From: Oxalobacteraceae bacterium
GTDB taxonomy: Bacteria > Pseudomonadota > Gammaproteobacteria > Burkholderiales > Burkholderiaceae_D
DNA: 64,000 nt
Direction: 5' to 3'
NCBI GenBank assembly: GCA_947374865.1
Contig: CANCDR010000010.1
Span: 20,319-84,318, forward strand
In this document: positions 1,024 to 32,424 of the stretch, piece by piece
Position numbering within the stretch: position 1 is the stretch's first letter
Layout of the letters: every line of letters starts with the position of its first letter
The notes under the pieces: model-generated
The model's input: the letters and a program-made list of their open reading frames with translations, nothing else
Told to the model about the DNA's origin: nothing
Databases searched by the model: none
Made by a program: the position numbers and the translations under genes

Positions 1024-1237
1024 ATCATTGATACAAACGTCCCTGCTGTTCACGATCTTGCAGAGATCCTGAACGGCAGCGGGACGATTGCAGCCAATGC
1101 GAAGTCTGGCTGCTGAAATGTCAGCAGGCGCCACTGCCTGACGCGCATCGATTAAGTCGCGGCAAGGTGCGATCGCATTGGATTTCTTTAAAACAGATAT
1201 CATTGCAATTCACCTTTGCTTTTTTAAGCGACTCTGC

Positions 1238-3289
1238 ATGAAAAAAAATATCGCCCGTTTCATTCTTTTTGTCGCCCTCCATGCGCTGGCTTTATCGACC
1301 TGGGCAGCGGCTTCCAGTTCACCTGCGACGCCATTACCAGACCGTTTCCTAAACCTGCTAGAGGCCCAGGGAGTGTCCGGCCATGAAGACGAGGTGCGTG
1401 CGGCAGTACTTTCGCAGCTGCCGGACTGGGTCACACCGCAGATCGACCAGCTGGGCAATCTGATCATCACGCTCGGCAAAGGGGAGCCGCACGTTGCCAT
1501 CGTCGCAGCGCTGGATGAAAACGGCTACCTCATTTCGGGCATTACACCGGAAGGCTATCTGCGCCTACACCGCCATACCGCGCGCAATTCACATCCACTG
1601 CGCGAACAATTTTTCGTCGGCCAGCCGGTGCAAATTCGCAGCGCCAGCGGCAAATTGATTCCTGGTGTAACGACCACTCCCTCCACCCACCTGAGCCGTC
1701 TGCTGCCGGCAAACGAAACCAGTCGGGTACGAGACATGAGCGATTTATGGGTCGATGTCGGCGCGCCTGACCAGGCCACCGTTAGCCAGCTGGGACTGCG
1801 CATGCTGGATTCGGTCAATCTGCGTAATCGTGCCACGCGACTAGCCAATGACAAGGTCGCTGGCGTCGATAGCCAGCTGCGTGCCGGCGCGCAGACACTG
1901 ATTGAAATAGTGCGCGGTTATGCCTTGGCACCCCAAGTCAATGGCACGCTGACGCTGGCATGGGTGACACAGTCGCAGTTCGGCGATCATGGTCTTAACC
2001 GACTGGCGACCTCGGCCCGGCCGCAGCGCGCTTACCTGATCGGCGGTTCAGCAGGCGGTCTGCAATCCCCTCCCAAAGGCTGGGAAAATACCCGTATCGA
2101 ACTCAAGTCGGTGCCCTCACTGTTTGCGGAAACGCCGGTCGAAGTCATTGATACGCGACACATCACCGCATTGGCCAGCGAACTACAAAGCGCGGTCGGA
2201 CTGCCCACCCCTACGGTCTTACTGAGCGCCTTCAAGCAAAGTTCGAGCGCATCCCTCGCCGTCCATCCCGTCGCACCAGTTGGCTCGTTTGCCATCCTCA
2301 AGACCATGATTGAAGCATATGGCGTCTCCGAACACGAAGGCCCGGTTCGTGAAGCCATCCTCAAGGCTCTACCAGCCTGGGCCAAACCCGTGACCGACGA
2401 ACAGGGCAATCTGAGCGTAAGCTTCGGTAGCGGCGGCAAGGAACTGCTGTTCGTCGCCCATATGGACGAGGTGGGCTTCGATATCACTGGATTACGTGAA
2501 GATGGCAGCGCCCGGGTGCGGGTGCGCGGGGGGGTGTATCTGTCCCTCTACGAAGCACAGCCGGTACTGGTGCATACCGAACGTGGCATCGTGCGCGCCA
2601 TCATGACACCGCGTCCACGCTACAGTGCCGCCACCCGTTCGCAGCCCGAGATCGAAACGCTGAGCGTCTATTTTGGCACGGCATCCGCTGCCGAGACCCG
2701 TGCTCTGGGCGTGAATCCTGGCCAATCAATCACGGTACCCAAGGCCTTCGTCGAACTGGCCGCACCGCGCGCGACCGGTCGTTCCATGGACGACCGGGCT
2801 GGCGTAACTGCGCAGCTCATGGCACTGGCGACGCTGGATCCGACTAAAGTCAAAAATCAGGTGACATTTGCCTTCAGCGTGGGCGAAGAGATCGGCTTGG
2901 TCGGCGCGCGGGCACTGGCCAAACGTCTGCAGCCTGAGGTCGCCTTTGCGATCGATACGTTTGTCTCAACCGACACACCGACCGACCCGCATTATCTGGC
3001 CCATGCACCGCTCGGTGCAGGCGCCGTATTACGCGGCGTTGACAGCATGACGGTCGTACCCGCGCAAACCATGGATCGCATCACCAAACTAGCGCGCGAA
3101 AACAAGATTGCACTGCAAATCGGCGTGACCCAAGGCGGCACCGATGCCAGTGAATTCAGCAGCCGCGGTGCAATTGACGTCGGACTTTCCTGGCCAGGAC
3201 GCTACTCCCATTCCCCCGTCGAAGTGATCGACCGGCGCGACCTGGAGTCACTGGCACGTCTAATCAGCGTGCTGGCGCAGCAGTATTGA
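1238..3289 (+). CDS. Secreted tandem M42 (TET/FrvX-type) aminopeptidase fusion: degenerate N-terminal copy plus intact C-terminal copy
   Basis: ORF 1178..3289. The ATG at 1238 gives the signal peptide MKKNIARFILFVALHALALSTWA. The second half has M42 ligand motifs AHMDEVGF, SMDDRAG, VGEEIGLVGA, AFAIDTF, RYSHSPVE. The first half aligns to it but reads AALDENGY, ANDKVAG, TQSQFGDHG, AYLIGGS, LFAETPVE. Confidence 0.8.
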   Translation: MKKNIARFILFVALHALALSTWAAASSSPATPLPDRFLNLLEAQGVSGHEDEVRAAVLSQLPDWVTPQIDQLGNLIITLGKGEPHVAIVAALDENGYLISGITPEGYLRLHRHTARNSHPLREQFFVGQPVQIRSASGKLIPGVTTTPSTHLSRLLPANETSRVRDMSDLWVDVGAPDQATVSQLGLRMLDSVNLRNRATRLANDKVAGVDSQLRAGAQTLIEIVRGYALAPQVNGTLTLAWVTQSQFGDHGLNRLATSARPQRAYLIGGSAGGLQSPPKGWENTRIELKSVPSLFAETPVEVIDTRHITALASELQSAVGLPTPTVLLSAFKQSSSASLAVHPVAPVGSFAILKTMIEAYGVSEHEGPVREAILKALPAWAKPVTDEQGNLSVSFGSGGKELLFVAHMDEVGFDITGLREDGSARVRVRGGVYLSLYEAQPVLVHTERGIVRAIMTPRPRYSAATRSQPEIETLSVYFGTASAAETRALGVNPGQSITVPKAFVELAAPRATGRSMDDRAGVTAQLMALATLDPTKVKNQVTFAFSVGEEIGLVGARALAKRLQPEVAFAIDTFVSTDTPTDPHYLAHAPLGAGAVLRGVDSMTVVPAQTMDRITKLARENKIALQIGVTQGGTDASEFSSRGAIDVGLSWPGRYSHSPVEVIDRRDLESLARLISVLAQQY

Positions 3290-6393: not shown

Positions 6394-6422
6394 AAAAAAC
6401 TGTCATGTCAAGACCTGACCCC
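6394..6422 (-). repeat. Copy 3 of the 28-nt element, inverted orientation
   Basis: The + strand reads AAAAAACTGTCATGTCAAGACCTGACCCC. It overlaps the stop codon of the glycosyltransferase ORF. Confidence 0.9.
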
Positions 6423-7238
6423 ATGGTTTTTTAGGCCGCGGCTTGCTTCGATGGTGCGGTTTTGTGCGCGTGCGAGTACGAGGTCGCGGTTGCTTGATGC
6501 TTGGTCACGTTGGGCTTCGCGGTGCCAGAGGTGGAATACTTCGGTGGCGAAGGCGCCGTCTTTGCGCATCACGCCGGCGTTGAATAGCCTTACTACCAGG
6601 TCCGAATCTTCATGGCCCCAGCCGAGGAAGCTTTCATCAAAGCCATTTACGAGCGCCAAATCGCTGCGCCAGACACCCAGATTACAGCTCTTGATACGAC
6701 GCCAGCTAAAGCTTCGGCGTTCACGCCCCAAGTCAGGCCAGCGTAGCACCCACTGCAACAGTTTGTTGACGTGACCTTGCAAACGCCAACCTAGTTTGCT
6801 TGCCAGAGGAACGCGCGAGAGGTCGATCCCTTCGGCCATGACACGCTCGCTCAGTGCCGCACTCATGAGCACCCTGCTCCCCGAGACCAGAAAACCAGGT
6901 CGCGCCAGCTGGCGGTGACGCGCGACAAAATCACGTTGGGGTATGCAGTCCCCATCCAGAAAAACAATATACGCACCATGCGCTGCCAATGTGCCACGAT
7001 TGCGCGCCATCGCCGCACGAAAGCCTTCATCACTTTGCCAAACATGCACCAGCGACACCGGCGACTCAGCCCGCAAGCGGTCGATCATTTCCCTTGTGTT
7101 GGCAGTGGAGCCGTCATCGGCGATAATGATTTCAAAATGCTTCTCACTCTGCACAAAACAGGCCCGAATCACCGTCTCGAGCGCATCGGGTCGGTTATAT
7201 GTCGTAATGACAAGAGAAATAGTCGCGTCTAGATGCAT
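6408..7238 (-). CDS. Family 2 glycosyltransferase
   Basis: 276 aa. GT2 signature ISLVITTYNRPDALE...IIIADDGS...FLDGDCIP and a C-terminal GWGHEDSDL block. The last four codons plus the stop lie inside repeat copy 3. Confidence 0.85.
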   Translation of the reverse strand: MHLDATISLVITTYNRPDALETVIRACFVQSEKHFEIIIADDGSTANTREMIDRLRAESPVSLVHVWQSDEGFRAAMARNRGTLAAHGAYIVFLDGDCIPQRDFVARHRQLARPGFLVSGSRVLMSAALSERVMAEGIDLSRVPLASKLGWRLQGHVNKLLQWVLRWPDLGRERRSFSWRRIKSCNLGVWRSDLALVNGFDESFLGWGHEDSDLVVRLFNAGVMRKDGAFATEVFHLWHREAQRDQASSNRDLVLARAQNRTIEASRGLKNHGVRS

Positions 7239-7294: not shown

Positions 7295-8551
7295 ATGAAC
7301 AATAGACTCAAGCAAATAATTTCACCAAAGCAGCTGGTCGCGGGCCTACTGGTGTTTTTGCTGCCATTTCTCAGCCTCGTGACCCTGTGGGGCGTGAGTG
7401 GCGTCAGCTTCGGCATTGCGGCTGTCGCTGCGCTGATCATCATCACCGGCCAGGGACGCAGCGTGATGGCACCACATTGGCGCGCCGTGCGTCCGGTGTG
7501 CTTGGCTTTCCTGCTTCATTTTCTATTCACTCTGGCTTGTCTGATTCTGCGTAGCGAGGCAATCCTGTCCGCGCTCGAAAGGCCGGCGCGCATGTTGTTG
7601 GCAATATCTGCGCTGATGCTGGTTTTGTGGGCACGTCCCGATCGTCGATTTCTTTGGTGGGGCGTTGCCGGCGGTGCCTTGGCGGGTGCTTTTCTGGTCG
7701 GTTATCAGAGGCTCGGTCTGGACATGGATCGTCCCGGTGGTTTGATGAATGCGATCACCTTTGGCGATATGTCGCTCTGTCTGGGTTTGATTTCGATCGC
7801 CGCCATGATCGACCAGCGCAGCGCGCGACAAATGATATGGCCCATCATCGGTCTGATCGCCGGTCTGGCCGGATCGGTCATGACAGGCACGCGGGGTGGC
7901 TGGCCTGCGTTGGCGTTGGCGGCTGTGATCATGGTTCGCTATAGTCATGCGCTCAATAGTCGGCGTGTGCGTGCCTGGGTAATCGTGAGTTTTGTCTTGG
8001 TCGGCGCTACCTATTTCATCCCTGGCAGCGGCGTGAGCGAGCGCGTCGACGAAGGTATCGCCGGGATCAGCAGTTATTTTAATGGTGGAAGTGTCTTCAC
8101 CATCATGGGTATCCGGCTCGAGCTCTGGAAGAGCGCCAGCATGCTGATCGCCGAACATCCCCTGCTGGGTATCGACTACCAGGCCGCTGCTGTGCGTATG
8201 ACCGAATGGGTCGCTGCAGGTCGTCTGGATCCCGTGGTACTGACCATGCCGCACTTACACAATGAATACTTACAGAAATGGGTGACGGGCGGTGCCGTCG
8301 GTTTGGTGATCTGGCTAGCGACCCTGATCACCCCAATAATTTTTTTCGCCCGCCAGCTCGCTCCAGGTGCTCAAGCAAACAAAACCGTCATCGCCTGCGC
8401 CCTCGCCGGCCAATTCGTCGTCACGAGCTATCTGTGCTTTGGCCTCACCGAAGTCATCTTCTGGTCAGTCAAAGCCAGCCTCTTCTATGCACTCATGGTC
8501 TTCCTACTCATGGGCCTCTGCCTCAACGAAACCCCTGGGGTCAGGTCTTGA
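7295..8551 (+). CDS. O-antigen ligase (Wzy_C) family membrane protein
   Basis: 418 aa and polytopic (about 10 or more hydrophobic segments). It has a Wzy_C-like central loop region (..GTRGGWPALALAAV..) and is divergent from the GT2 gene. The last four codons plus the stop lie inside repeat copy 4. Confidence 0.75.
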   Translation: MNNRLKQIISPKQLVAGLLVFLLPFLSLVTLWGVSGVSFGIAAVAALIIITGQGRSVMAPHWRAVRPVCLAFLLHFLFTLACLILRSEAILSALERPARMLLAISALMLVLWARPDRRFLWWGVAGGALAGAFLVGYQRLGLDMDRPGGLMNAITFGDMSLCLGLISIAAMIDQRSARQMIWPIIGLIAGLAGSVMTGTRGGWPALALAAVIMVRYSHALNSRRVRAWVIVSFVLVGATYFIPGSGVSERVDEGIAGISSYFNGGSVFTIMGIRLELWKSASMLIAEHPLLGIDYQAAAVRMTEWVAAGRLDPVVLTMPHLHNEYLQKWVTGGAVGLVIWLATLITPIIFFARQLAPGAQANKTVIACALAGQFVVTSYLCFGLTEVIFWSVKASLFYALMVFLLMGLCLNETPGVRS

Positions 8552-8737: not shown

Positions 8738-11710
8738 TTAGCCGTGCAAGCTGATCAGTCCACCCGGCGACACTGATGTCGCTACAGTAAACGAATAAAT
8801 ACCAATCAATTCAACGACAGAGTCATTCATCGAGATTGCCGAAGAACTAATATCATGCGCACTGACGATATACGTATTTCCTTGGAATACGAAAGCTTCC
8901 AAACTGCCATTATTTGAGGCGCTAGCAGCCCCAGTCGCCGCTGAAGCCATATTTGCCGCAGTCAACCATGTCGATAAAGACCTCGCATCCCCCGCAACAT
9001 TGGTAATTGTGTTGATTATCCCCATTCGCAGTAAATTATTATTTAATGTCATCGTCAGGGTATCTGAGGAAGTGGCCGTGTTGTTCAAGCCTGAAATAGT
9101 GCTGTAATGTATTCCATCAGTTATACCGACCGTCACCGCATCATGGGTAAAATTAGAGTGAGCGCCTAATTTAATTGTCAATGCATCACCCAATCCTGCG
9201 GCAATAATAGTTGCTGACCCACTACCAACTGTAATATTCCCAGACACGCCATTGCCGCTGGCTTTGATCGTTCCAAGTCCACCGTTACCCAGTGTGATAT
9301 CAATCGTGCCGACAGAGGATGTCATAACAGAATTATTGGCGCCATCACCTAAGTTCACTGTTTGGCTAGAACCAACAACGCCCGAACCTAAAATCACCGT
9401 ATCGTAAGCGCCATTCCCCATCGTGACTTTTACGACGTTTCCTGCTGCTGTGGCACCTGATAATGTCACGTAATTATGCGTTCCTGCATTGCCAGATACA
9501 TCCTTTGTCGTGATGCTGACATTGCCTACGGAGGCACCAGTTACATAGTCACCCAAGCCAGAACCTAATGCGACGACTTGAGTGGACCCAGCAACACCTG
9601 GTCCTAAAGTAACATAATCACCGATTCCATTTCCCATGGTTATGGTGTTCGTTGCTGTCGCTGAGGTTGCGCCAGCCAAGGTCGCATAATCGCCCGCACC
9701 ATTGCCAAATGTCAGCGTAACGTTGCCTGTAGATACAACCGTAGCATAATCGCCTACGCCAGCGCCCAAGGTGAAATTAATCGATCCGGCAGCAACAGCA
9801 GCACTGGTAATGTAATCACCCGCACCATTTCCCAGAATTACGGTTTGATTGCCAACATCTGAAGCACTAGACAAAACGACATAGTCCCCTGCATTCCCAC
9901 CCATTTTTACAGAATCGTTCGCAGCTGAAGCAAGCGTCACCGCTGTCCAAGCAGAAGCCACAGCATTGGCTGCATTAGTAGCCAAAATTCCCGCCGCAGT
10001 CACGGCATTCGTTGCAGCCAAGTCATCTGTCGTCACTGTTGTGAGCTTCGTTACCGCTATTAAGTTCGCCGCTGCCGTCACCGCTGATGCGGCTAAAGTC
10101 TGCGCGTCCAAGGCATTCTTCGATGCCAGTGTGGCAGCATCAACCGAGGCATTAGTCAAAGTAAGCGTGGTTGCAGAATCCGCTGCGGCGGTGGCCTTAG
10201 CAGCGTTTAACGTTGCCAAGGTTGCCGCCGTAACTGCACTATTCGCAGATGCGGTGTAAGTCGACAAGGCCAAATCCGCGTTCGCTTCACGCGACAATTC
10301 TAGGCTCACGACGGATAAATTGGTATTTGCTTTAGATAAGGCACTCTCAGCAGCAAGGACAACATTTTTAGCCTTCGTCACCATTACAGTCGCTGCATCG
10401 ACTGCGCTCGTCCCTGCGTCATCGTCGGTAAGAATCTTGGTAAGAACAGTCGCTGCTTTGTAAGTCGTGGCGGATGACATCACGCCTTTAGCCGCATCTT
10501 GGTAAGCATCGGCATTTGACTTTGCCAGCGTCGCCGCTGTGACGTATGCATTGGCATTCGCCAGTGATGTCGCAGCAAGATTTGCAGCAGATGTGGCCAA
10601 GTCACCATTCACGGTAGCCGCATCAGCAGCAGATGCAGCAAACAATTTAGCATTGTTAAAGCTGCCCAAGACTATCACCGCATTTTGTTCGTTGGCGACA
10701 TCTTTAGTCGCCTGTTGGGAATCTAGATTTGCTTGTAGCTTCCCTTGAACGCTGGCATTTTCTGCTGCAGCGACTACTTTTTGCTGACCCGCAGTAACGG
10801 CACTTGCCGCGACTGATTTTGACAATTTCGTCACCGCAATAGCGTTACTTGCCGCCACATCATCCGAGGTATCGCTAGTGGCATCCGTAGCAGCTTTCAA
10901 TTCGGCAGCAGCAGTCGATGCCAACGCAGCATAAGCAAAATAAGTTGCCGCTGTTGATGAAGCCAGATTTGCCGCAACAGTGGCCACTGCCGCCAAGGGA
11001 ACCGTGTTAGCAGCAAGTGCTGCATTATCAGCAGCAAGGGCAGCACTTGTAGCGGCGGTCGCATAAGTATTGACGTTTGCTGCAGCAATGCCGTAATTCT
11101 TCAAGGCAGATGTCGCGCTTATCGCCTTAAGAGCTTGCATGGCAGCGATTGCTTCGGCATTTGCTGTATCTGTCGCAGCGCGATAACCGGCATCAGCCGA
11201 ATAAGAAGCGGCAGCATTTGCAGCAGTGACGTCAGTCGATGTCACCAGTTTAAGAATGGCCGTAGCATCAGTTACGCTAGTGCCTTGTAATGTTGCGCCA
11301 AAATTTAAGGCAACCGCGACTTTATTCATAAACAGCGCTTGTGAGATATAGCCAGCTGCATCATTGCCAGCGTAATCCAAAACAGCAGCAATGAGTTTAA
11401 CGACAACGCCGCCAACACTGGCACCAGAGGCATTCAGTTCTGCAGTCCAATGCGCGAGTCCCTCAGCATCTGGCATGCGTCCCAGAACATTGGTATAGAA
11501 GTTAGTAACGATTTGTCCATTATTCAAATTCAATGGGTAAATCGTGCGTGCGGCTTCTGTTGTATACATTTGTTGTGCAATGGAGGAAAAGCTTGCCCCC
11601 TTGCCCATCAGGTCAACCCAGAAAGCCAAACCACTCGCTTCAGGGGCGCGTGCAAACAGGGATACGTAGAGTTGTGTTACTTGCGTCGTCATTGCGCTAT
11701 GCATAGCCAT
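8738..11710 (-). CDS. Large leaderless surface/secreted-type protein: N-terminal DUF4214-like module, Ala/Thr-rich central region, G-x-G-x-GDY repeat block, distinct C-terminal domain
   Basis: 990-aa ORF with no signal peptide and no Cys. N-terminal motifs are LYVSLFARAPEASGLAFWVDLM and FYTNVLGRMPDAEGLAHWTAEL. Repeats include GNAGDYVVL, GNGAGDYITS, GAGVGDYATV, GNGAGDYATL, GNGIGDYVTL, GSGLGDYVTG. Confidence 0.8.
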   Translation of the reverse strand: MAMHSAMTTQVTQLYVSLFARAPEASGLAFWVDLMGKGASFSSIAQQMYTTEAARTIYPLNLNNGQIVTNFYTNVLGRMPDAEGLAHWTAELNASGASVGGVVVKLIAAVLDYAGNDAAGYISQALFMNKVAVALNFGATLQGTSVTDATAILKLVTSTDVTAANAAASYSADAGYRAATDTANAEAIAAMQALKAISATSALKNYGIAAANVNTYATAATSAALAADNAALAANTVPLAAVATVAANLASSTAATYFAYAALASTAAAELKAATDATSDTSDDVAASNAIAVTKLSKSVAASAVTAGQQKVVAAAENASVQGKLQANLDSQQATKDVANEQNAVIVLGSFNNAKLFAASAADAATVNGDLATSAANLAATSLANANAYVTAATLAKSNADAYQDAAKGVMSSATTYKAATVLTKILTDDDAGTSAVDAATVMVTKAKNVVLAAESALSKANTNLSVVSLELSREANADLALSTYTASANSAVTAATLATLNAAKATAAADSATTLTLTNASVDAATLASKNALDAQTLAASAVTAAANLIAVTKLTTVTTDDLAATNAVTAAGILATNAANAVASAWTAVTLASAANDSVKMGGNAGDYVVLSSASDVGNQTVILGNGAGDYITSAAVAAGSINFTLGAGVGDYATVVSTGNVTLTFGNGAGDYATLAGATSATATNTITMGNGIGDYVTLGPGVAGSTQVVALGSGLGDYVTGASVGNVSITTKDVSGNAGTHNYVTLSGATAAGNVVKVTMGNGAYDTVILGSGVVGSSQTVNLGDGANNSVMTSSVGTIDITLGNGGLGTIKASGNGVSGNITVGSGSATIIAAGLGDALTIKLGAHSNFTHDAVTVGITDGIHYSTISGLNNTATSSDTLTMTLNNNLLRMGIINTITNVAGDARSLSTWLTAANMASAATGAASASNNGSLEAFVFQGNTYIVSAHDISSSAISMNDSVVELIGIYSFTVATSVSPGGLISLHG

Positions 11711-25526: not shown

Positions 25527-26108
25527 TCAGTTATTCATACAATTGACCTCGATATTATTGACGGCCTGCGTGCTCATGACGGCCGTACCATTCTTCACCG
25601 TGCAGGTTTGTCCTGCCGGTTGGCTCAAGATCGCAACACCATACACGGCACCGATATCGACCAGACCTGAAAAGGTGAATGTGCTCTTACCTGCGGCGAT
25701 GTCCATGTGATCCGGGCCATTCACCAATTGCAGTCCAGACCCTGTTAATCCAATGATGTTGCCGCTGATGGCGTAAGCGTTCACTTGGCAGACGACATCC
25801 GCTGTCGTGATGGCAATGCCGGTCGTCGTCCCATTCGGACCTGAAATCTGGCAGTGTAGTCCCGGTGGCTGCTGTACTACCTGGATGCTATAAGAATGAC
25901 GTGCATCGACATTCTCTGCAAAGACATAGGCATGGGTATTGGCGGGAATGACGAGTAACTGTGCATCATTTTCAATGATCAATCCATCTGCCGTCAGACC
26001 GACCACATCTCCACCCAGGCTCACTGTCGAATAACCCCCGCAGGCAGTCAGGGATGTGAGAAGTGCCAGGATGCCTATCCGGCAAAATGCCTCGTAAAAT
26101 GTTTTCAT
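25527..26108 (-). CDS. Lipoprotein A: two tandem ~85-aa Cys-bracketed beta-type domains (paralogue of 27282..27857)
   Basis: Lipobox LTSLTACGG. Each half ends in a Q(Q/S)P.G..C.(I/V)..(P/K)NGT....A......V.C pattern, e.g. QPAGQTCTVKNGTAVMSTQAVNNIEVNC. Confidence 0.75.
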   Translation of the reverse strand: MKTFYEAFCRIGILALLTSLTACGGYSTVSLGGDVVGLTADGLIIENDAQLLVIPANTHAYVFAENVDARHSYSIQVVQQPPGLHCQISGPNGTTTGIAITTADVVCQVNAYAISGNIIGLTGSGLQLVNGPDHMDIAAGKSTFTFSGLVDIGAVYGVAILSQPAGQTCTVKNGTAVMSTQAVNNIEVNCMNN

Positions 26109-26275
26109 GTTTTCCCCTAGTGCTCATCGAAAATCGGATTGTTGAAAATTTAAAATTACTTGTAGAAATAAATAGTGTGATCAATACAGTGATTAATAAA
26201 ATGGATAGATTCAAAAATTCATAGAGCTACACCGCAGGTGATATATGAATAAAAAAGGGTTTTAAATGTAGTGCT

Positions 26276-26884
26276 TTAAATGCAGTTAATTTCAATATTA
26301 CGGATGGCGTCCGTGCCCATCGTCCCGGAACCATTGACGACGCTGCAGTGGCGCAGATCAGGCTGTGTCTTGACTGAAACGCCATAGCGCACACCCGGAA
26401 AAAGTTTGGTAGGAAAGCTAAAGTTTTTGCTCGCCGATGTCAGCTTCACCGTATCGGTCCCATTCGCCAGAGTCAGTACCTGGCCATCTGTCAAACCAGT
26501 GACGACCCCACCCAAGCTATTCTCAACCCCACAGGTCACGTTGACCGGCGTGTTATTTTCCAGTGAGGCGGTATGAAATCGTTGGTCCACATAACATTGA
26601 AGACCGACTGGTTGAGCCAGAATGTTCACGCTAAAAATCAAATCGGCATTCATGTGAGTCGGAAATGAAAACGTCGTCGCATTGGTCGGCACAGTGATGG
26701 CATTCAAGCCATCTGAAAGCGATAAACCATCATTAGAGAATCCGCTCACGGTGCCTGTCACAATCACCATGCTGGGCCCAGAACTGCCGCCACAGGCGCT
26801 TAAGCACAGCAGCAATAACAGCGTGGCGGCTGATTTTATGCAGGGGATTGTTTGCCAATGAGGCAGCAGTATTGCGTTATGCAT
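26276..26884 (-). CDS. Lipoprotein B: two tandem Cys-bracketed domains (paralogue of 27895..28482)
   Basis: Lipobox LCLSACGG, followed by TGTVSGFSNDGLSLSDGLNAITVP...FSFP..., QPVGLQCYV.. and QPDLRHCSVVNGSGTMGTDAIRNIEINC. Confidence 0.75.
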   Translation of the reverse strand: MHNAILLPHWQTIPCIKSAATLLLLLCLSACGGSSGPSMVIVTGTVSGFSNDGLSLSDGLNAITVPTNATTFSFPTHMNADLIFSVNILAQPVGLQCYVDQRFHTASLENNTPVNVTCGVENSLGGVVTGLTDGQVLTLANGTDTVKLTSASKNFSFPTKLFPGVRYGVSVKTQPDLRHCSVVNGSGTMGTDAIRNIEINCI

Positions 26885-27033
26885 TGAATTGTCCCAGAAG
26901 ATGGAGATCCGCTCCCAGCTCCACTACATTCAGGTGAAATACAGGAAGCCCCTGGAAAAATTATGCCGCAATTTGATTAACAAAATGGAAAGTTAAAGGT
27001 TTAAATTTTTGCGTGTCGACTGCTATCGACACG

Positions 27034-27075
27034 CAAAAAAATACGGCCTCCAAAGCAAACAATGCTTTGGAGGCC
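27034..27075 (-). terminator. Intrinsic terminator of tRNA-Leu
   Basis: Perfect 13-bp stem GGCCTCCAAAGCA/TGCTTTGGAGGCC (27045..27075), followed on the - strand by GTATTTTTTT. Confidence 0.8.
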
Positions 27076-27085
27076 GCATCAATAT

Positions 27086-27178
27086 TGGTACCTGAGACCG
27101 GACTTGAACCGGGACGCCCCCTCTCGGGTAAGCGGCGGATTTTAAGTCCGCTGTGTCTACCAATTTCACCACTCAGGC
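27086..27178 (-). tRNA. tRNA-Leu (anticodon TAA), type II with a long variable arm
   Basis: The - strand reads GCCTGAGTGGTGAAATTGGTAGACAC...GCGGA-CTTAAAA-TCCGC...GGTTCAAGTCCGG...CTCAGGT-A-CCA. At 93 nt it is longer than usual, so boundaries should be confirmed with tRNAscan-SE. Confidence 0.8.
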
Positions 27179-27281
27179 GGTGTGAAGTGCGCGTAAATAT
27201 GCCATTTATGCGCAAAATTTACTGCAAACGGATTGTAGCATTTAACCCGTCACTTTGACGCATTCAAGCGTCAGTGCAGGA

Positions 27282-27857
27282 TCAAATACAGGTGATCGCG
27301 ATATTCGTTACCGCTGCTGAGCCCATGGTGGAGGTGCCATTTTTTAACGTGCAGGTCTGGCCGGCTGGCTGCGACAGGATCGCCACGCCATACACCGAGC
27401 CGTCAGAGACCGGCGTAGGCATGGTGAATAAGGAGGTACTACCGGCAATCGTCAGATTATCGGCACCATTCGTGAGCGACAGCCCTTCGCTCGTCAGACC
27501 CGTAATACTTCCACCAACAGTGTACGCATTGAGTGAACAGTAAATGTTTGCCGTGTTAATCGCGATGCCCGTCGTCGTGCCTGCGGCGCCGGAGATCATA
27601 CAAGTCAGACGCGGCGGCTGTGCGTCAATCGTGATGGCATAGGTGCCATGGTCGTCAATTTGTTTTGGAAACACATAGGTCGTAGCATTAATCGGCACCG
27701 CCAGCGACTGGCCGGCGTTGCTGATCACCAGGCCAGAGGTAATCAAACCGCTCACCGCTCCGCCCAGGTTGACCGTCGTATAGCCACCGCAGGCTAGCAG
27801 TGTGAGCGTCAGTAAGCTTGCGAATAAATACCCTGTCTTTTTTACAGCATTCTTCAT
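27282..27857 (-). CDS. Lipoprotein C: two tandem Cys-bracketed domains (paralogue of 25527..26108)
   Basis: Lipobox LTLLACGG. It shares long blocks with A: ACGGY.TV.LGG.V.GL, TTTGIAI.TA, VYGVAILSQPAGQTCT.KNGT. Confidence 0.75.
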   Translation of the reverse strand: MKNAVKKTGYLFASLLTLTLLACGGYTTVNLGGAVSGLITSGLVISNAGQSLAVPINATTYVFPKQIDDHGTYAITIDAQPPRLTCMISGAAGTTTGIAINTANIYCSLNAYTVGGSITGLTSEGLSLTNGADNLTIAGSTSLFTMPTPVSDGSVYGVAILSQPAGQTCTLKNGTSTMGSAAVTNIAITCI

Positions 27858-27894
27858 TTTCTCTCCGAGTGACCAACATGGTCAGCAGTAATCA

Positions 27895-28482
27895 TTAGGC
27901 TTTTGTGCAGGTGACATTCACCGTGGTGACGTCTATTTGACCCATCGTGGCAGCACCATTCGTAACGCTGCAGATCTGTCCGGCGGGCTGAGTCAGTACG
28001 GTGACACCATAAGTAACGCCAGCCATGACTTTGTTGGGAAAGACAAACGTGCTCGAGTTAGCCGTTACAGCGACCGTGTTGGCGCCATTCGCCAGCACCA
28101 GTCCACTGCCGGTCAGGCCAGTGATTTTTCCACCTAAATTATTATTTGTTGCGCACGTGACAACGATCGCAGTAGTGTCGCTGTAACCGGCGGTACCGGC
28201 GCCATTCGCGACCAAACAGGTGTACCCTGCAGGCGGCGACAACACAGTGACGTTGTAGCTGATGCCTAAGTTCATGCGATTAGGAAAAGAGAAGGTCGTC
28301 GAGCCCATCGGAATATTGACCGTGCTCAGCCCATTGCTCAGCGACAGGTTGCCGGTCGTCAGGCCACTGACCGTACCGCTCATGACGACGGTGTTAATGT
28401 CAGAGGAACCGCCACATGCGGCCAACGATAGCAGCGCACCTACCAAGGCCAATGTTCGCATTGGCTTTAAAAAACCCATCAT
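27895..28482 (-). CDS. Lipoprotein D: two tandem Cys-bracketed domains (paralogue of 26276..26884)
   Basis: ORF 27895..28542. The Met at 28482 (MMGFLKPMRTLALVGALLSLAACGG) is preceded by GGAGAG. It shares SGTVSG....LSLS.GL....P...TTFSFP and QP....C.V.NG.GT blocks with B. Confidence 0.75.
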   Translation of the reverse strand: MMGFLKPMRTLALVGALLSLAACGGSSDINTVVMSGTVSGLTTGNLSLSNGLSTVNIPMGSTTFSFPNRMNLGISYNVTVLSPPAGYTCLVANGAGTAGYSDTTAIVVTCATNNNLGGKITGLTGSGLVLANGANTVAVTANSSTFVFPNKVMAGVTYGVTVLTQPAGQICSVTNGAATMGQIDVTTVNVTCTKA

Positions 28483-28903
28483 GAATCTCTCCAAAAATTG
28501 TGGCTGCAGTGTAATGCAAAAAAGCATTTGATTCAAAATCAAAACGAGATTGTACAGTGCCCGACGGCATTCTTAGCGACTTCTAGAAAAAGCCTTCATT
28601 CAGCGCTATTTCTGAGCCAACATATTACAAGATGAAAAGGTCTATGTGCGCCTATCTGAATCAGCCAAGAAGCCCTTCCCCTATTAAATTGCGCTTTTGC
28701 GCGAAACCTCAATCAAGTTTCTCGCCAGGCATTGCAGCTCGACGAGGATGCCTTTACAAAGAAATACCAGCGACGTCTTCTGCATCCCGCCCTTTTGGTA
28801 GATATCGTCCCGGGAAATGTCTTATCGGCCAATGACACGGGTAGCAGGACGGACTTGCCTTACTAGGTCATGGTGATTACCGAGGAAGTCCGAGGAGAAA
28901 AAG

Positions 28904-29593
28904 ATGCAGCACGATGACATGCATGCGCCATTTGGCCGCTTTAAGGATCGTCAGCATGCTGGCAGCCTGCTGGCACAAAAGCTGCACGCCTATGCTGGTC
29001 ACAGGGATGTGATCGTGGTGGCTTTGTCGCGCGGTGGGGTGCCGGTCGGTTTTGCACTTGCCAAGGCGCTGCATGTGCCGCTGGATGTGATGGTAGTCCG
29101 TAAGCTCGGCGCACCAGGTCATGCGGAATATGCCATCGGGGCGCTCGCCAGCGGTGGTCAGCGGGTATTGCAGGATGAAATCATTCAAGCCTTGCACATT
29201 TCGCCGCACATGATCGCCGCAATGACAAAGCAAGAAATGGTGATCATCGAAGCGCGCGAGAAAGCCTATCGCGCCGTGCGACACGCATTGCCTTTGACTG
29301 GACGCACCGTCATCCTCGTCGACGATGGACTGGCGACCGGGACCACCATGCGGGTTGCCATTCAGAAGGTGCGAATGAGCTCACCGGCGCGCCTGATCGT
29401 GGCGGTGCCGGTATCCGCGCGCGAAACCCGCAACGCACTCGCGCCATTGGTGGACGAGCTGATCTGTTTGCGCACGCCAGAACATTTTTATGCTGTCGGT
29501 TTGTGGTACGAGGATTTTGCTCAAACTAGCGATGAAGAGGTCTGCAATTTACTGCGGCAATCGCAAAAAAGACCGTTTTCTCCCTTGCCATGA
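28904..29593 (+). CDS. Phosphoribosyltransferase-fold family protein (function unknown)
   Basis: 229 aa. It has the PRPP-binding-type loop VILVDDGLATGTTMRVAI and an N-terminal F.DR..AG..LA block typical of the 'putative phosphoribosyl transferase' family. Confidence 0.75.
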   Translation: MQHDDMHAPFGRFKDRQHAGSLLAQKLHAYAGHRDVIVVALSRGGVPVGFALAKALHVPLDVMVVRKLGAPGHAEYAIGALASGGQRVLQDEIIQALHISPHMIAAMTKQEMVIIEAREKAYRAVRHALPLTGRTVILVDDGLATGTTMRVAIQKVRMSSPARLIVAVPVSARETRNALAPLVDELICLRTPEHFYAVGLWYEDFAQTSDEEVCNLLRQSQKRPFSPLP

Positions 29594-29665
29594 AGAGCGC
29601 AGGAGAAGCCGTCTTCTGTGCATTTCGCCACTCCAGCAACGCATGGAGTGGCCTGTTTCATTTGC

Positions 29666-31738
29666 TCAAAGGATCAGGTTGACTGAGGAAACGCCAATCA
29701 AGCCCAGGGCTTCCGTCATATCCGTTGGCGAGATGGCACCCGCGATCGCCATGCCTTGCGTGATCGAGGCATCGGCAGTGGCAAAACTGAGTCCCCAGTC
29801 GACGGCAAATTTCTGCGCCACGGCAATTTTATTATCGAGCAAATTGGCGACCCAGCCCCAGGTCGCATCGCCTTTGTAGGCATGTGCGCCACCCAAGATT
29901 GCTGATACCAGTGAGCCGCGTGTTTCTGTGCCGGCAACGAGCAGATCGCTCCAGTATTTCATGCCGCCTTCGTCCGCACCTTCTGGGCGGCCCAGTACAT
30001 TTTTATAGACCACATTGATGAAATCCGCCGTCGTCATGCTGGCACTAAAGCCGGTCAGGCTGGCATATTGCACGCCAACACCGTAAAACGTCTCGGCGAT
30101 CTGCTTGGTCGTTTGTCCGCCGGTGAGCTGATCGATCCAGTAGGCCATACCATCACCGTCCGGAATCCGGTTAAAGAAAGCGACGTACAGCTCCATCAGA
30201 CGCTGCACATCGGCCGCCGGTGCCGCTGCGGCCTTGGCCTGCACCGTCAGATTCACCGTCAGATCAGCAAATTTGAGTGATTCCACGTTGGTAATGAGGT
30301 CAATCCCGTCCTTGCCCGAGTTATCGGTGACCTGGTAGGTTGAGCCGGAATGTCGCAGCGTATAGTTAGCCAGATTGCCGCTAAAGACGAGCGTATCAAA
30401 GCCAGCGCCGCCATTGACGACGTCATTGAGTTCAGTGGTTTTAAGGGTGTCAGGACCGTTGGTACCGTTAATGACTGGCGCAGCCACGACCAGCGGATCA
30501 ACGATCGCCAGAGAGGCCCCTAAAATAATTTTGTCGATGACCTGCTTAGCCGTTGCATTCGGCGATTGCTGAAACAGTAAGGCGGCCAATCCGGCGACAT
30601 AAGCCGACGCGGTCGCACTATCGCCATCTTTTGAGGTGGCATAGCTGCCATCACTGGTCGGCACATAGCCGGTCGAGCTTGCCAATACCCAAGGGAATGG
30701 TGTTGTACCCGGCAGATTGGCGGTATCCACGGGTAATGCAGTCAGCGAATTGTAATTGCCTACATCAATGCATTCACTGCTCGTCAGTGCACTCAACCCA
30801 GGACCGCTTGGTCCCACATTGCCAAAGTCACCGCCCATGACGACGACCACAACATTATGTACATACGCATTATGAATAGCGCTGGCAACGGTGGCGAAAA
30901 ATGCGCTATTGAGGGTACTTTGCACAGGAAGGCAGATCACCTTGGCACCGTTATCGACGGCGTAATTGATGCCCTTGACGATGTTGCCCAATGTCGAGCC
31001 ACTCGCGTCACCGATACGCACATTGAGAATCGATGCGTCTGGCGCTACGCCCTGCGTATCTTGCCCCGTGCGCGTGGTGTGGCTAGCAGCAATGACCGAT
31101 GCCAGTCCGAGCGCATGATCTTGATTGACGCCGGCGCTGGGTTGGGGATTGGTGTCATTATCGACAAAGTCATAGCCGCCAGTAATATTGCTATTAATTT
31201 CTGCATTGGCCGCGATGCCCAAATCGAGCACGGCAACAGTCACGCCCTTACCCGTAATACCTGCCGTCCAGGCTGATGGCGCATGAATCAGATTTAGCGC
31301 TAGATTATTGTTTTGACCGCTCGTCGCCAATGCCGCACCGGTATCCTTAACACCGAGTGAGGTCGCGACATTAATTAAACCAAAGCCCCGCGTTGCAGAC
31401 CAGTCGTCGGTAGTGGTGCGGATAATTCTGCCAGTGACTTCCTGAAAGTTATTCGCCGTATCGGTAACGTTAATATCTCCCGAGGTTTCAGGAAAAAACT
31501 TAAAGCCGATTAATCCATCACCCGACTTGACCTCCCAGACATGACTCGACATCGACGCTTCGACGACTTTTTGCCCTGGCAAAATGGTCGCAAATGGGAC
31601 TTCGAGGCCGTTACGATCCAGCCAATAAATACTTAGGATGGAGGCCGAGTTATTAGTGAGGGTAAATTCAACCGGAGCGCCATTGTCGGCACTGATCACT
31701 TTGGAGGTAATTGGTAGAAAACTAATGGTGGAGGCCAT
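29666..31738 (-). CDS. Leaderless subtilisin-like (S8) serine protease with an N-terminal VHL-beta-like region, an RTX-like segment and a C-terminal DUF4214-like module
   Basis: 690 aa. Catalytic contexts are VAVLDLGI (Asp), NQDHALGLASVIAA (His) and DGDSATASAYVAGLAALL (Ser). It also has GGAGFDTLVF, and the C-terminal LYVAFFNRIPDGDGMAYWIDQL ... VYKNVLGRPEGADEGGMKYWSDLL. There is no signal peptide. Confidence 0.8.
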   Translation of the reverse strand: MASTISFLPITSKVISADNGAPVEFTLTNNSASILSIYWLDRNGLEVPFATILPGQKVVEASMSSHVWEVKSGDGLIGFKFFPETSGDINVTDTANNFQEVTGRIIRTTTDDWSATRGFGLINVATSLGVKDTGAALATSGQNNNLALNLIHAPSAWTAGITGKGVTVAVLDLGIAANAEINSNITGGYDFVDNDTNPQPSAGVNQDHALGLASVIAASHTTRTGQDTQGVAPDASILNVRIGDASGSTLGNIVKGINYAVDNGAKVICLPVQSTLNSAFFATVASAIHNAYVHNVVVVVMGGDFGNVGPSGPGLSALTSSECIDVGNYNSLTALPVDTANLPGTTPFPWVLASSTGYVPTSDGSYATSKDGDSATASAYVAGLAALLFQQSPNATAKQVIDKIILGASLAIVDPLVVAAPVINGTNGPDTLKTTELNDVVNGGAGFDTLVFSGNLANYTLRHSGSTYQVTDNSGKDGIDLITNVESLKFADLTVNLTVQAKAAAAPAADVQRLMELYVAFFNRIPDGDGMAYWIDQLTGGQTTKQIAETFYGVGVQYASLTGFSASMTTADFINVVYKNVLGRPEGADEGGMKYWSDLLVAGTETRGSLVSAILGGAHAYKGDATWGWVANLLDNKIAVAQKFAVDWGLSFATADASITQGMAIAGAISPTDMTEALGLIGVSSVNLIL

Positions 31739-31989
31739 CGTGACTCTTTTCTTTAAATTGGTGATGAATACGCTATATCTGTATTTTTAATCAAAACGCG
31801 CCGTCGCCTTTGCTCAGTTACCGGCACTTTCCCGCGCTTGTTCAATTTTGAAGGGGGACATTACAGAAAATTACACTGTCAGTTGCCAACAGATCATACA
31901 TTTTCCGTAACAAAATGGGGAAATTATGTAGGCAATAAGAATACAATATTCTTATAGGCAATAATTAAGCGCTAGATTTAATGGGATTT

Positions 31990-32063
31990 TGGAGGCGGGG
32001 GTCGGGATCGAACCGGCGTCTACGGCTTTGCAGGCCGCTGCATAACCACTTTGCTACCCCGCC
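31990..32063 (-). tRNA. tRNA-Cys (anticodon GCA)
   Basis: 74 nt. The - strand reads GGCGGGGTAGCAAAGTGG...CCTGCAAAG...GGTTCGATCCCGACCCCCGCC-T-CCA. Confidence 0.9.
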
Positions 32064-32162
32064 ATGGGGACACAGCCTGAACTGCAGCTGTGAAGGTCTG
32101 AAATACGCAGGGCACATAAGGAATGCACCCTTAATACTAAGCGAAAAGACGCTTTTAAAATG

Positions 32163-32238
32163 TGGAGCGGGAGAAGAGTCTCGAACTCTCGACCTCAACC
32201 TTGGCAAGGTTGCGCTCTACCAACTGAGCTACTCCCGC
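32163..32238 (-). tRNA. tRNA-Gly (anticodon GCC), copy 1
   Basis: 76 nt. The - strand reads GCGGGAGTAGCTCAGTTGGTAGAGCGCAACCTTGCCAAGGTTGAGGTCGAGAGTTCGAGACTCTTCTCCCGC-T-CCA. Confidence 0.92.
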
Positions 32239-32348
32239 GTTGTCTTACAAAATCACTACCACCGAACTCAAATACAAGCTGCTTAAAAAAACAGCAGCAA
32301 ACCACCCCGCAATAAAAAAAGGAAGCCGGTAAGCTTCCTATCCGAATT

Positions 32349-32424
32349 TGGAGCGGGAGAAGAGTCTCGAACTCTCGACCTCAACCTTGGCAAGGTTGCG
32401 CTCTACCAACTGAGCTACTCCCGC
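32349..32424 (-). tRNA. tRNA-Gly (anticodon GCC), copy 2
   Basis: Identical in sequence to 32163..32238. Confidence 0.92.

Follow-up and report, generated by a model that had tools for sequence, protein, structure and literature searches.

A von Hippel-Lindau-type beta domain fused to a probably inactive subtilase in an Oxalobacteraceae bacterium, with intact relatives in soil bacteria and jumbo phages

The von Hippel-Lindau (VHL) beta domain is known almost wholly from animal oxygen sensing and from the chemistry of proteolysis-targeting chimeras (PROTACs), and its microbial family is experimentally unstudied. In the human protein, pVHL, hydroxyproline is held in a site formed by Trp88, Tyr98, His110, Ser111, His115 and Trp117; the hydroxyl group of the hydroxyproline bonds with Ser111 and His115, and its carbonyl group bonds with the hydroxyl of Tyr98 (PMC9528729). 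Prokaryotic VHL beta domains have received a passing mention in the searchable literature, where their function is stated to be unknown (PMC7736814). Here we describe a gene at positions 29666-31738 (minus strand) of a 64,000-nucleotide stretch of an Oxalobacteraceae bacterium genome (contig CANCDR010000010.1, positions 20,319 to 84,318; hereafter the window). It encodes a protein of 690 amino acids (aa), here called the VHL-S8 protein, in which a VHL-type beta domain is followed by a subtilase (peptidase S8) fold, a beta-rich module with an RTX-like motif and a DUF4214-containing tail. An original prediction, judged by eye, had described it as an S8 protease with divergent catalytic motifs, no signal peptide and an N-terminal region resembling the VHL beta domain. 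Our analyses confirm the VHL homology, show that the residues of the hydroxyproline site are conserved, and indicate that the protease domain itself has most likely lost its activity.

Residues 1-104 are a genuine homologue of the VHL beta domain (PF01847 superfamily), more than chance would give. A phmmer search of residues 1-133 against the Protein Data Bank (PDB) was suggestive only, retrieving pVHL at E~1.4 in the register that had been drawn by eye. A profile of 45 orthologue N-termini was then compared with 177,635 distinct PDB sequences; 24 were retrieved, all of them pVHL (E=0.003, ungapped over 59 residues), and hhalign of the 45-sequence profile with human pVHL gave 94.7% probability and E=5.8e-8 over 62 columns. 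Scanned singly, 37 of the 45 orthologue N-termini matched PF01847 at E<=1 and 16 at E<=1e-4 (best E=7.7e-8), and at the latter threshold PF01847 was the sole family to match them. The AlphaFold2 (AF2) model of residues 1-104 has eight strands (predicted local distance difference test score, pLDDT, 89.3; predicted template modelling score, pTM, 0.80). In a Foldseek search of the PDB with this model the top 50 matches were all pVHL chains at probability 1.00, with E-values of 9e-6 to 1e-4, TMq of 0.54-0.68 and a root mean square deviation of ~2 A over ~90 columns. The likeness to VHL thus held up in both profile and fold searches, which gave VHL and nothing else. Two further searches yielded little: the N-terminus by itself retrieved no sequence in a word-indexed homologue search, the relatives having come from the full-length protein, and a BFVD fold search gave weak matches only, to giant-virus ORFans.

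Two other identities for this region were considered and rejected. Pfam gave no match to the I9 propeptide family (PF05922) anywhere in the protein, and the N-terminal model is all-beta and matches pVHL; the region is VHL-like and does not have the alpha/beta fold of a subtilase I9 propeptide. The profile and hhalign matches are confined to pVHL residues 63-124, the first part of the beta domain. No alpha domain with a BC-box for Elongin C binding was found: homology stops at about residue 100, the S8 fold comes directly after, and in the full-length model (pLDDT 85.8, pTM 0.63) residues 101-119 form only short strands before the S8 core. Since it has no alpha domain or BC-box, the protein is not a ubiquitin-ligase adaptor, and a pVHL-like E3 adaptor role was set aside.

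The likeness extends to the residues of the hydroxyproline pocket. In the ungapped HMMER and hhalign alignments, adding 49 to a residue of the VHL-S8 protein gives the pVHL number, so that N29, W39, F49, A61, S62, H66 and W68 correspond to pVHL N78, W88, Y98, H110, S111, H115 and W117. Four of the five site residues W88, Y98, S111, H115 and W117 are identical, and the tyrosine is replaced by phenylalanine. The same columns are conserved in the family. The asparagine is present in 27 of 27 members of a 27-member alignment, and among ungapped members of a 71-member alignment we counted W in 64/64, Y or F in 62/64, S or T in 63/65, H in 62/65 and W in 65/65. Across 425 domains sampled from 146 proteins of the wider superfamily, N78 was kept in 98%, W88 in 90%, H115 in 85% and W117 in 93%, position 98 was Y in 63% and F in 7%, and position 111 was T in 78% and S in 16%. 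The positions of the pVHL site are the strongest conserved signature across these 425 VHL-beta domains.

The second module belongs to the S8 family by both profile hidden Markov model and fold. Pfam places Peptidase_S8 (PF00082) at residues 163-406 (E=3.6e-15; 56.5 bits, cut-off 21.8), the domain matches thermitase at E=2.4e-21 (HMMER), and the core of the model has high pLDDT. The complete Asp-His-Ser and oxyanion Asn set is not found at the canonical positions. Asp (D172) and His (H208) are kept. The Ser motif, which reads DGGTSFAGPYVAG in the orthologues (canonical GTS), reads DGDSATASAYVAG in the VHL-S8 protein at equal length, and the block around the nucleophile has changed from GTSFAGP to DSATASA. 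With no gap needed against 70 relatives, A375 fills the nucleophile column and S374 that of the Thr just before it. Across the 71 members, the catalytic Asp is present in 69, the His in 69, the oxyanion Asn in 70 and the Ser in 69; Ala at the Ser column is shared with one other member, and D304 at the oxyanion Asn column is found in this protein alone. The claim that the core keeps Asp, His and Ser therefore holds for D172 and H208 and fails for S374, which had been taken as the catalytic Ser. Likewise, of the two motif contexts called unusual, the Ser motif does differ from that of the orthologues, and the His motif, DHALG, is a trait of the whole family.

Other observations fit this placement. 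Fourteen of 105 conserved S8 columns deviate in the VHL-S8 protein (family median 2), clustered at 304, 339-340 and 373-379, and only one of 13 conserved VHL-domain columns does so. In the full-length model a helix spanning 374-391 starts at S374, H208 begins its helix and D172 ends its strand, a predicted layout that matches the canonical arrangement with A375 at the Ser position. In HMMER alignments with thermitase, the residue opposite the catalytic Ser is S374 or A375 according to where the gap is placed. The PADLOC and PHROG subtilase models gave no match for the protein, whereas they match the orthologue P0008, and PADLOC made no defence-system assignment for it. From its sequence, the S8 domain most likely no longer hydrolyses substrates, and we treat it as a non-peptidase homologue unless activity is shown.

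The altered protein is nevertheless maintained. A second lineage carries a copy (P0268) that is 96% identical, with 25 mostly conservative differences, and both the A375 and D304 changes are kept in it. Compared by the Nei-Gojobori method, the two genes give an overall dN/dS of 0.049 at a dS of 0.40; by part, the value is 0.061 in the VHL domain, 0.042 in S8 and 0.061 in the tail. Because dN/dS is low and the substitutions are shared, we regard this as a maintained protein; a sequencing error or a decaying pseudogene was rejected, with dN/dS at 0.05 and the open reading frame (ORF) intact in two lineages. In a separate lineage with degenerate catalysis, represented by P0058 and P0061, the His has become Asn in both, the Ser has become Ala in P0061 and the Asp has become Ser in P0058. 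These two proteins have also lost the VHL pocket His (His to Asp), so that catalytic loss and pocket change coincide, unlike in the VHL-S8 protein.

The absence of a signal peptide was correctly noted in the original prediction: residues 1-9 lie inside the VHL-like fold, and F7 is invariant in 27 aligned members and at least 90% conserved in larger sets. The succession of an RTX-like GGAGFDTLVF segment and a DUF4214 module was also located as described. DUF4214 (PF13946) matches in two stretches at E=1e-16 (61.2 bits, cut-off 23.2). The RTX motif is weak and below the cut-off, a single degenerate nonapeptide matched by PF00353 at residues 423-450 (E=0.0098; 16.3 bits against a cut-off of 23), and the NCBIfam SapA region matches residues 419-518 at 1.9e-14. 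In the model, a disordered hinge (413-419) leads into a beta module with strands between 422 and 496 and then an all-helical part (497-680). Residues 419-690 (29669-30481, minus strand) share 57-61% identity with the C-terminal ends of P0071-P0075, which carry M10/serralysin-type metalloprotease, Big_5 and RTX domains in their N-terminal parts. In most orthologues the DUF4214 tail is shorter and of another kind (...GFxYxPYHG). On these comparisons the tail is a swappable cassette, and that of the VHL-S8 protein looks like a recent C-terminal swap. Distant members of the same S8 subfamily, from metagenome-assembled genomes (MAGs) of a gammaproteobacterium and a member of the Caulobacteraceae, have many canonical RTX repeats. 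Given these repeats and the lack of a signal peptide, we infer type I secretion; the protein is probably exported, with type I secretion and/or surface retention mediated by its RTX-like and DUF4214 modules.

A second DUF4214 protein is encoded in the window at 8738-11710 (minus strand). The domain takes up residues 45-95 of the 990 aa, with no annotation elsewhere in the protein, whose gene adjoins a family-2 glycosyltransferase gene and a Wzy_C O-antigen-ligase-like gene (6408-7238, minus strand, and 7295-8551, plus strand). The position of DUF4214 beside polysaccharide genes hints at a link to cell-surface polysaccharide.

With the full-length protein we retrieved ~70 orthologues from Massilia, Telluria, Duganella and Pseudoduganella, which are 600-690 aa long and 41-47% identical to it. 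The VHL-like domain lies directly N-terminal to the S8 core in every member. Several have precomputed PF01847 assignments, and one is named 'von Hippel-Lindau disease tumor suppressor protein' by NCBI. Among 185,579 reference species, full-length relatives occur in only about ten, nearly all of the Massilia group, and the species of the window is itself absent from that set. The holders of the family can be described as soil bacteria plus two giant phages. The copy P0008 lies on a 322,570-bp contig where flanking genes match phage families in nine of ten cases, including head maturation protease, DNA polymerase, dCTP deaminase and tRNA nucleotidyltransferase in PHROG. IMG/VR lists this contig together with a second viral contig of 263,413 bp, and the two VHL-S8 copies are 51% identical to each other. 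Both have a full WYTHW pocket and an intact D-H-N-S set (L004 10001-11875, which is the same as L088 5001-6785; L089 5001-6779). A full-length relative was absent from the INPHARED phage collection, where Bacillus and Moorella phages gave partial S8 matches only; the link to phages comes from metagenome and IMG/VR contigs.

The domain itself is far more widespread than this family. When the profile of 45 N-termini (A2) was searched against 1.84 billion representative proteins, 5,058 clusters were found at E<=1e-3, 534 of them at E<=1e-10. Many of the 5,058 contain 2-24 tandem VHL-beta copies, including proteins of ~2,000 aa (P0121-P0267, for example P0126 and P0128). Ten superfamily proteins were sampled, and all match PF01847 far above the cut-off. 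Their fusion partners include a ricin-type B lectin, beta/gamma-crystallin, a class-3 lipase, an M90-like peptidase and a DPP-IV N-terminal domain, and two multi-copy proteins among the ten (925 and 432 aa) come from the chytrid fungus Phlyctochytrium bullatum. The fusions with lectins, lipases and peptidases fit a role of the VHL-beta domain as a binding module. The fusion was called unusual in the original prediction, and in the light of these results it is less so: PF01847-type domains occur in thousands of microbial clusters together with lipases, lectins and peptidases, and VHL has been annotated automatically on several of the orthologues.

Based upon the A375 and D304 substitutions, taken with purifying selection, we read the VHL-S8 protein as a non-catalytic binding protein that arose from a VHL-targeted protease. 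We put at a little better than even the chance that the family consists of VHL-beta exosites on exported subtilases and that the protein in the window is a protease-dead derivative kept as a binder, decoy or adaptor. In the wider family, the first module would recognize a ligand or substrate and hold it beside the attached subtilase. The change of the nucleophile Ser to Ala and of the oxyanion Asn to Asp would have left the second module catalytically dead in the window's lineage. Purifying selection would then preserve the protein for binding, or as a decoy or adaptor, with both the VHL pocket and the substrate cleft still in use, and the third and fourth modules would be a cassette shared with RTX metalloproteases for type I secretion and/or surface retention. 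The targeted protease first envisaged as an unusual device thus fits the intact orthologues and not the VHL-S8 protein, which is probably inactive.

Several observations weigh against this explanation. Outside the metazoans, VHL domains have no known ligand (PMC7736814). The VHL-S8 protein's own N-terminus has no Pfam match even at E<=10, and its assignment rests on the family profiles and the model. Its F49 is without the hydroxyl of Tyr98, and part of the pocket conservation may be structural, W117 being a core residue. With S374 beside the nucleophile position and D172 and H208 retained, the protein may have residual activity. Genomic context was also examined, with neighbour functions in the window scanned for roughly 40 of its 70 ORFs that reach 150 aa. 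Type I secretion genes (ATP-binding cassette, ABC, transporter, membrane fusion protein, MFP, and TolC) were seen neither in the scanned ORFs nor in the flanks of the VHL-S8 gene, P0008, P0030 and P0268, nor beside P0071. No 2-oxoglutarate oxygenase or prolyl hydroxylase was present in the scanned ORFs or in the annotated flanks of the same four genes, and those of the tail-sharing P0071 likewise lacked a prolyl hydroxylase. An all-against-all ORF comparison found no gene common to the flanks of 12 family loci.

Were the protein instead a live serine protease, with S374 as nucleophile and the VHL domain targeting an active enzyme, the retention of D172 and H208 and the low dN/dS of the S8 domain (0.042) would follow readily, and a second HMMER alignment with thermitase does pair S374 with the catalytic Ser. 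We consider this unlikely. Against 70 relatives the alignment is free of gaps and puts A375 in the Ser column, the model helix starts at S374, the oxyanion Asn is lost in this protein alone of 71, and the motif around the nucleophile has changed as a block. In subtilisin, moreover, S221A and substitutions of N155 lower kcat by orders of magnitude. Another explanation concerns the beta-sandwich, which could stand in for the I9 propeptide: it would assist folding or inhibit the enzyme from within the same chain, be cut off as the protein matures, and read no ligand. Its place, directly before the S8 core in every member, is the very one that a subtilase propeptide takes, and the protein has no I9 domain. 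Yet the same domain and pocket recur as tandem copies and beside lipase, lectin and crystallin-like partners, none of which requires a propeptide, the fold is that of VHL and not I9, and the domain is still under purifying selection (dN/dS 0.061) though the protease nucleophile is lost; a propeptide role is therefore improbable in our estimation.

The beta-sandwich might also be a structural spacer or generic adhesion domain in which the residues shared with pVHL are kept for folding and not for a hydroxyproline-like ligand. W117 forms the structural aromatic core of pVHL with F76, F119 and F136 (PMC3688787), no prolyl hydroxylase is linked to any locus examined, and position 98 is F in our protein. 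The polar positions are harder to explain in this way than W117: the residues that bond the hydroxyproline hydroxyl are well conserved over the 425 domains (S/T 94%, H 85%), which is unusual for structural surface positions, and P0058 and P0061 have lost catalytic residues and the pocket His together. We regard a spacer as decidedly unlikely. A bolder proposal, by analogy with pVHL, is that bacterial and phage VHL-beta domains read hydroxyproline or a different proline degron, whether modified or not, in which case the intact orthologues would be reader-plus-protease machines in one polypeptide and the VHL-S8 protein a protease-dead reader or decoy. The conservation of the pocket makes the idea of a hydroxyproline reader attractive; contextual support for it was not found at the loci examined, and we hold the proposal to be rather doubtful.

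The coordinates of the gene and its features are given in Table 1. The ATG is the first start after the upstream stop, which makes an N-terminal extension impossible; a purine-rich run (AAAGAAAAGAG) lies immediately upstream of it, and the stop codon is at 29666-29668. The peptide strings quoted in the original prediction were all located in the translation: SADNGAPVEF...GLIGF at residues 16-79, DHALGLASVIAA at 207-218, GDSATASAYVAG at 372-383 and GGAGFDTLVF at 443-452. The linker has the family consensus WSTAxGYGLINVAKSLGV, which corresponds to WSATRGFGLINVATSLGV in the VHL-S8 protein, and is modelled with short strands at 105-107 and 112-114 and helices at 124-128 and 145-150. An identical 690-aa protein is present in three NCBI MAG assemblies in the same context.

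Table 1. Features of the VHL-S8 gene, with positions in the window
Feature	Position	Strand	Basis or detail
Whole gene, VHL-beta / S8-fold / RTX-like / DUF4214, 690 aa	29666..31738	-	ORF list, AF2 model, dN/dS
VHL beta-type beta-sandwich, residues 1-104	31427..31738	-	PDB profile search, hhalign, PF01847, AF2, Foldseek
Span of pocket codons	31535..31624	-	W39 31622-31624; F49 31592-31594; S62 31553-31555; H66 31541-31543; W68 31535-31537
Linker and N-terminal extension of S8, residues 105-150	31289..31426	-	15 columns conserved >=90%; model secondary structure
Subtilase (S8) fold, residues 151-410	30509..31288	-	PF00082, thermitase match, family columns, model, dN/dS
S8 site codons	D172 31223-31225; H208 31115-31117; D304 30827-30829; A375 30614-30616	-	S374 one residue before A375
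Beta-rich module with single RTX-like nonapeptide, residues 420-496	30251..30481	-	PF00353 sub-threshold, NCBIfam SapA, model
All-helical DUF4214-containing tail, residues 497-690	29669..30250	-	PF13946, tail identity to P0071-P0075, model

The VHL-S8 gene lies between a uvrC-pgsA-tRNA(Gly, Gly, Cys) cluster and a convergent phosphoribosyltransferase gene. The adjoining UvrC is 83-85% identical to those of Herminiimonas, Noviherbaspirillum and Herbaspirillum, which places the host among uncultured Oxalobacteraceae. A G+C-rich palindrome with a 9-bp stem (29627-29652) separates the convergent stops of the phosphoribosyltransferase (29593) and VHL-S8 (29666) genes and is likely a bidirectional terminator. 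Beyond the phosphoribosyltransferase gene there are four paralogous lipoprotein-like genes and a tRNA-Leu, at slightly lower G+C. The four paralogues are in tandem at 25527-28542 (minus strand), encode 193, 202, 191 and 215 aa, and have no Pfam match; at least two of them (27282-27857 and 27895-28542) have lipobox-like N-termini and internal repeats. Their run is broken by tRNA-Leu(taa) at 27086-27178, an arrangement kept in a related strain (L086). G+C is 0.495-0.54 across ~26000-32000 and 0.55-0.59 in the flanks, and tRNA genes border this low-G+C region (Cys, Gly and Gly at 31990-32424; Leu at 27086). The region, for which no integrase was seen, may be a small acquired islet that holds the VHL-S8 and phosphoribosyltransferase genes and the lipoprotein paralogues. 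Elsewhere in the window, a 703-aa ORF at 1178-3289 (plus strand) has an M42/M20/M28 aminopeptidase domain only at residues ~410-700; its N-terminal ~400 residues have no Pfam match at E<=1e-5, and the TTG start may lie too far upstream.

The component domains and the architecture of this protein are already recognized by automatic annotation. What is new here is the apparent pseudo-protease state, the superfamily-wide signature of the pocket and the jumbo-phage copies. Within a large microbial domain family, found in fusions with proteases, lipases and lectins and carried by two jumbo phages, no feature is better conserved than the residues of an animal hydroxyproline pocket. The Oxalobacteraceae family also offers a natural matched pair, an intact VHL-protease fusion and a selected, seemingly protease-dead copy that keeps the pocket, which makes a convenient system for finding the ligand of the ancestral pocket and for learning whether existing VHL ligands could serve as probes or inhibitors of microbial proteins. 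If the reader idea is true, the hydroxyproline pocket of animal oxygen sensing would be an ancient microbial ligand-binding module with which phages and bacteria choose their protein targets, such as surface proteins that are rich in hydroxyproline or resemble collagen. Should the pocket have a structural role alone, what is left is a secreted pseudo-protease with an ordinary accessory beta-sandwich.

Comparison with known systems places the VHL-S8 protein among several partial likenesses. It shares with the beta domain of human pVHL, the substrate receptor of CRL2-VHL, the beta-sandwich fold, a ~60-residue ungapped match and identical residues at W88, S111, H115 and W117. In contrast to pVHL, it is fused to a subtilase fold, its family is hosted by bacteria and phages, and, having no alpha domain or BC-box, it has no Elongin C/Cullin coupling. 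The accessory protein of type X retrons (IHF-like, transmembrane and VHL beta domains; PMC7736814) is a bacterial protein with a domain of the same Pfam family; however, it is DNA-binding and cytoplasmic, whereas the VHL-S8 protein combines a protease fold with RTX/DUF4214 modules and is probably exported. The closest relatives are the Massilia, Duganella and Pseudoduganella orthologues annotated as 'S8 family serine peptidase / DUF4214' (P0006, P0026, P0030 and P0039) and the two jumbo-phage copies. They have the same architecture, 41-47% identity over ~88% of the length, the same VHL pocket and no signal peptide. The orthologues differ in having the full D-H-N-S set and a shorter DUF4214 tail, where our protein has A375, D304 and a longer tail of the RTX-metalloprotease type.

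Type I-secreted RTX exoproteases (serralysin-like, in keeping with the SapA match) likewise have no N-terminal signal peptide and carry an RTX-like motif followed by a C-terminal tail. Unlike them, the VHL-S8 protein has one degenerate nonapeptide, a serine-protease fold in place of a metalloprotease, and no ABC/MFP/TolC genes found adjacent to it. A further parallel is with non-peptidase subtilase homologues (pseudo-proteases), in which the S8 fold is kept under selection for a role that does not involve turnover of an external substrate. PCSK9 acts biologically by binding rather than by cleavage, and its triad is kept for self-processing. In the VHL-S8 protein, by contrast, the nucleophile itself has been replaced.

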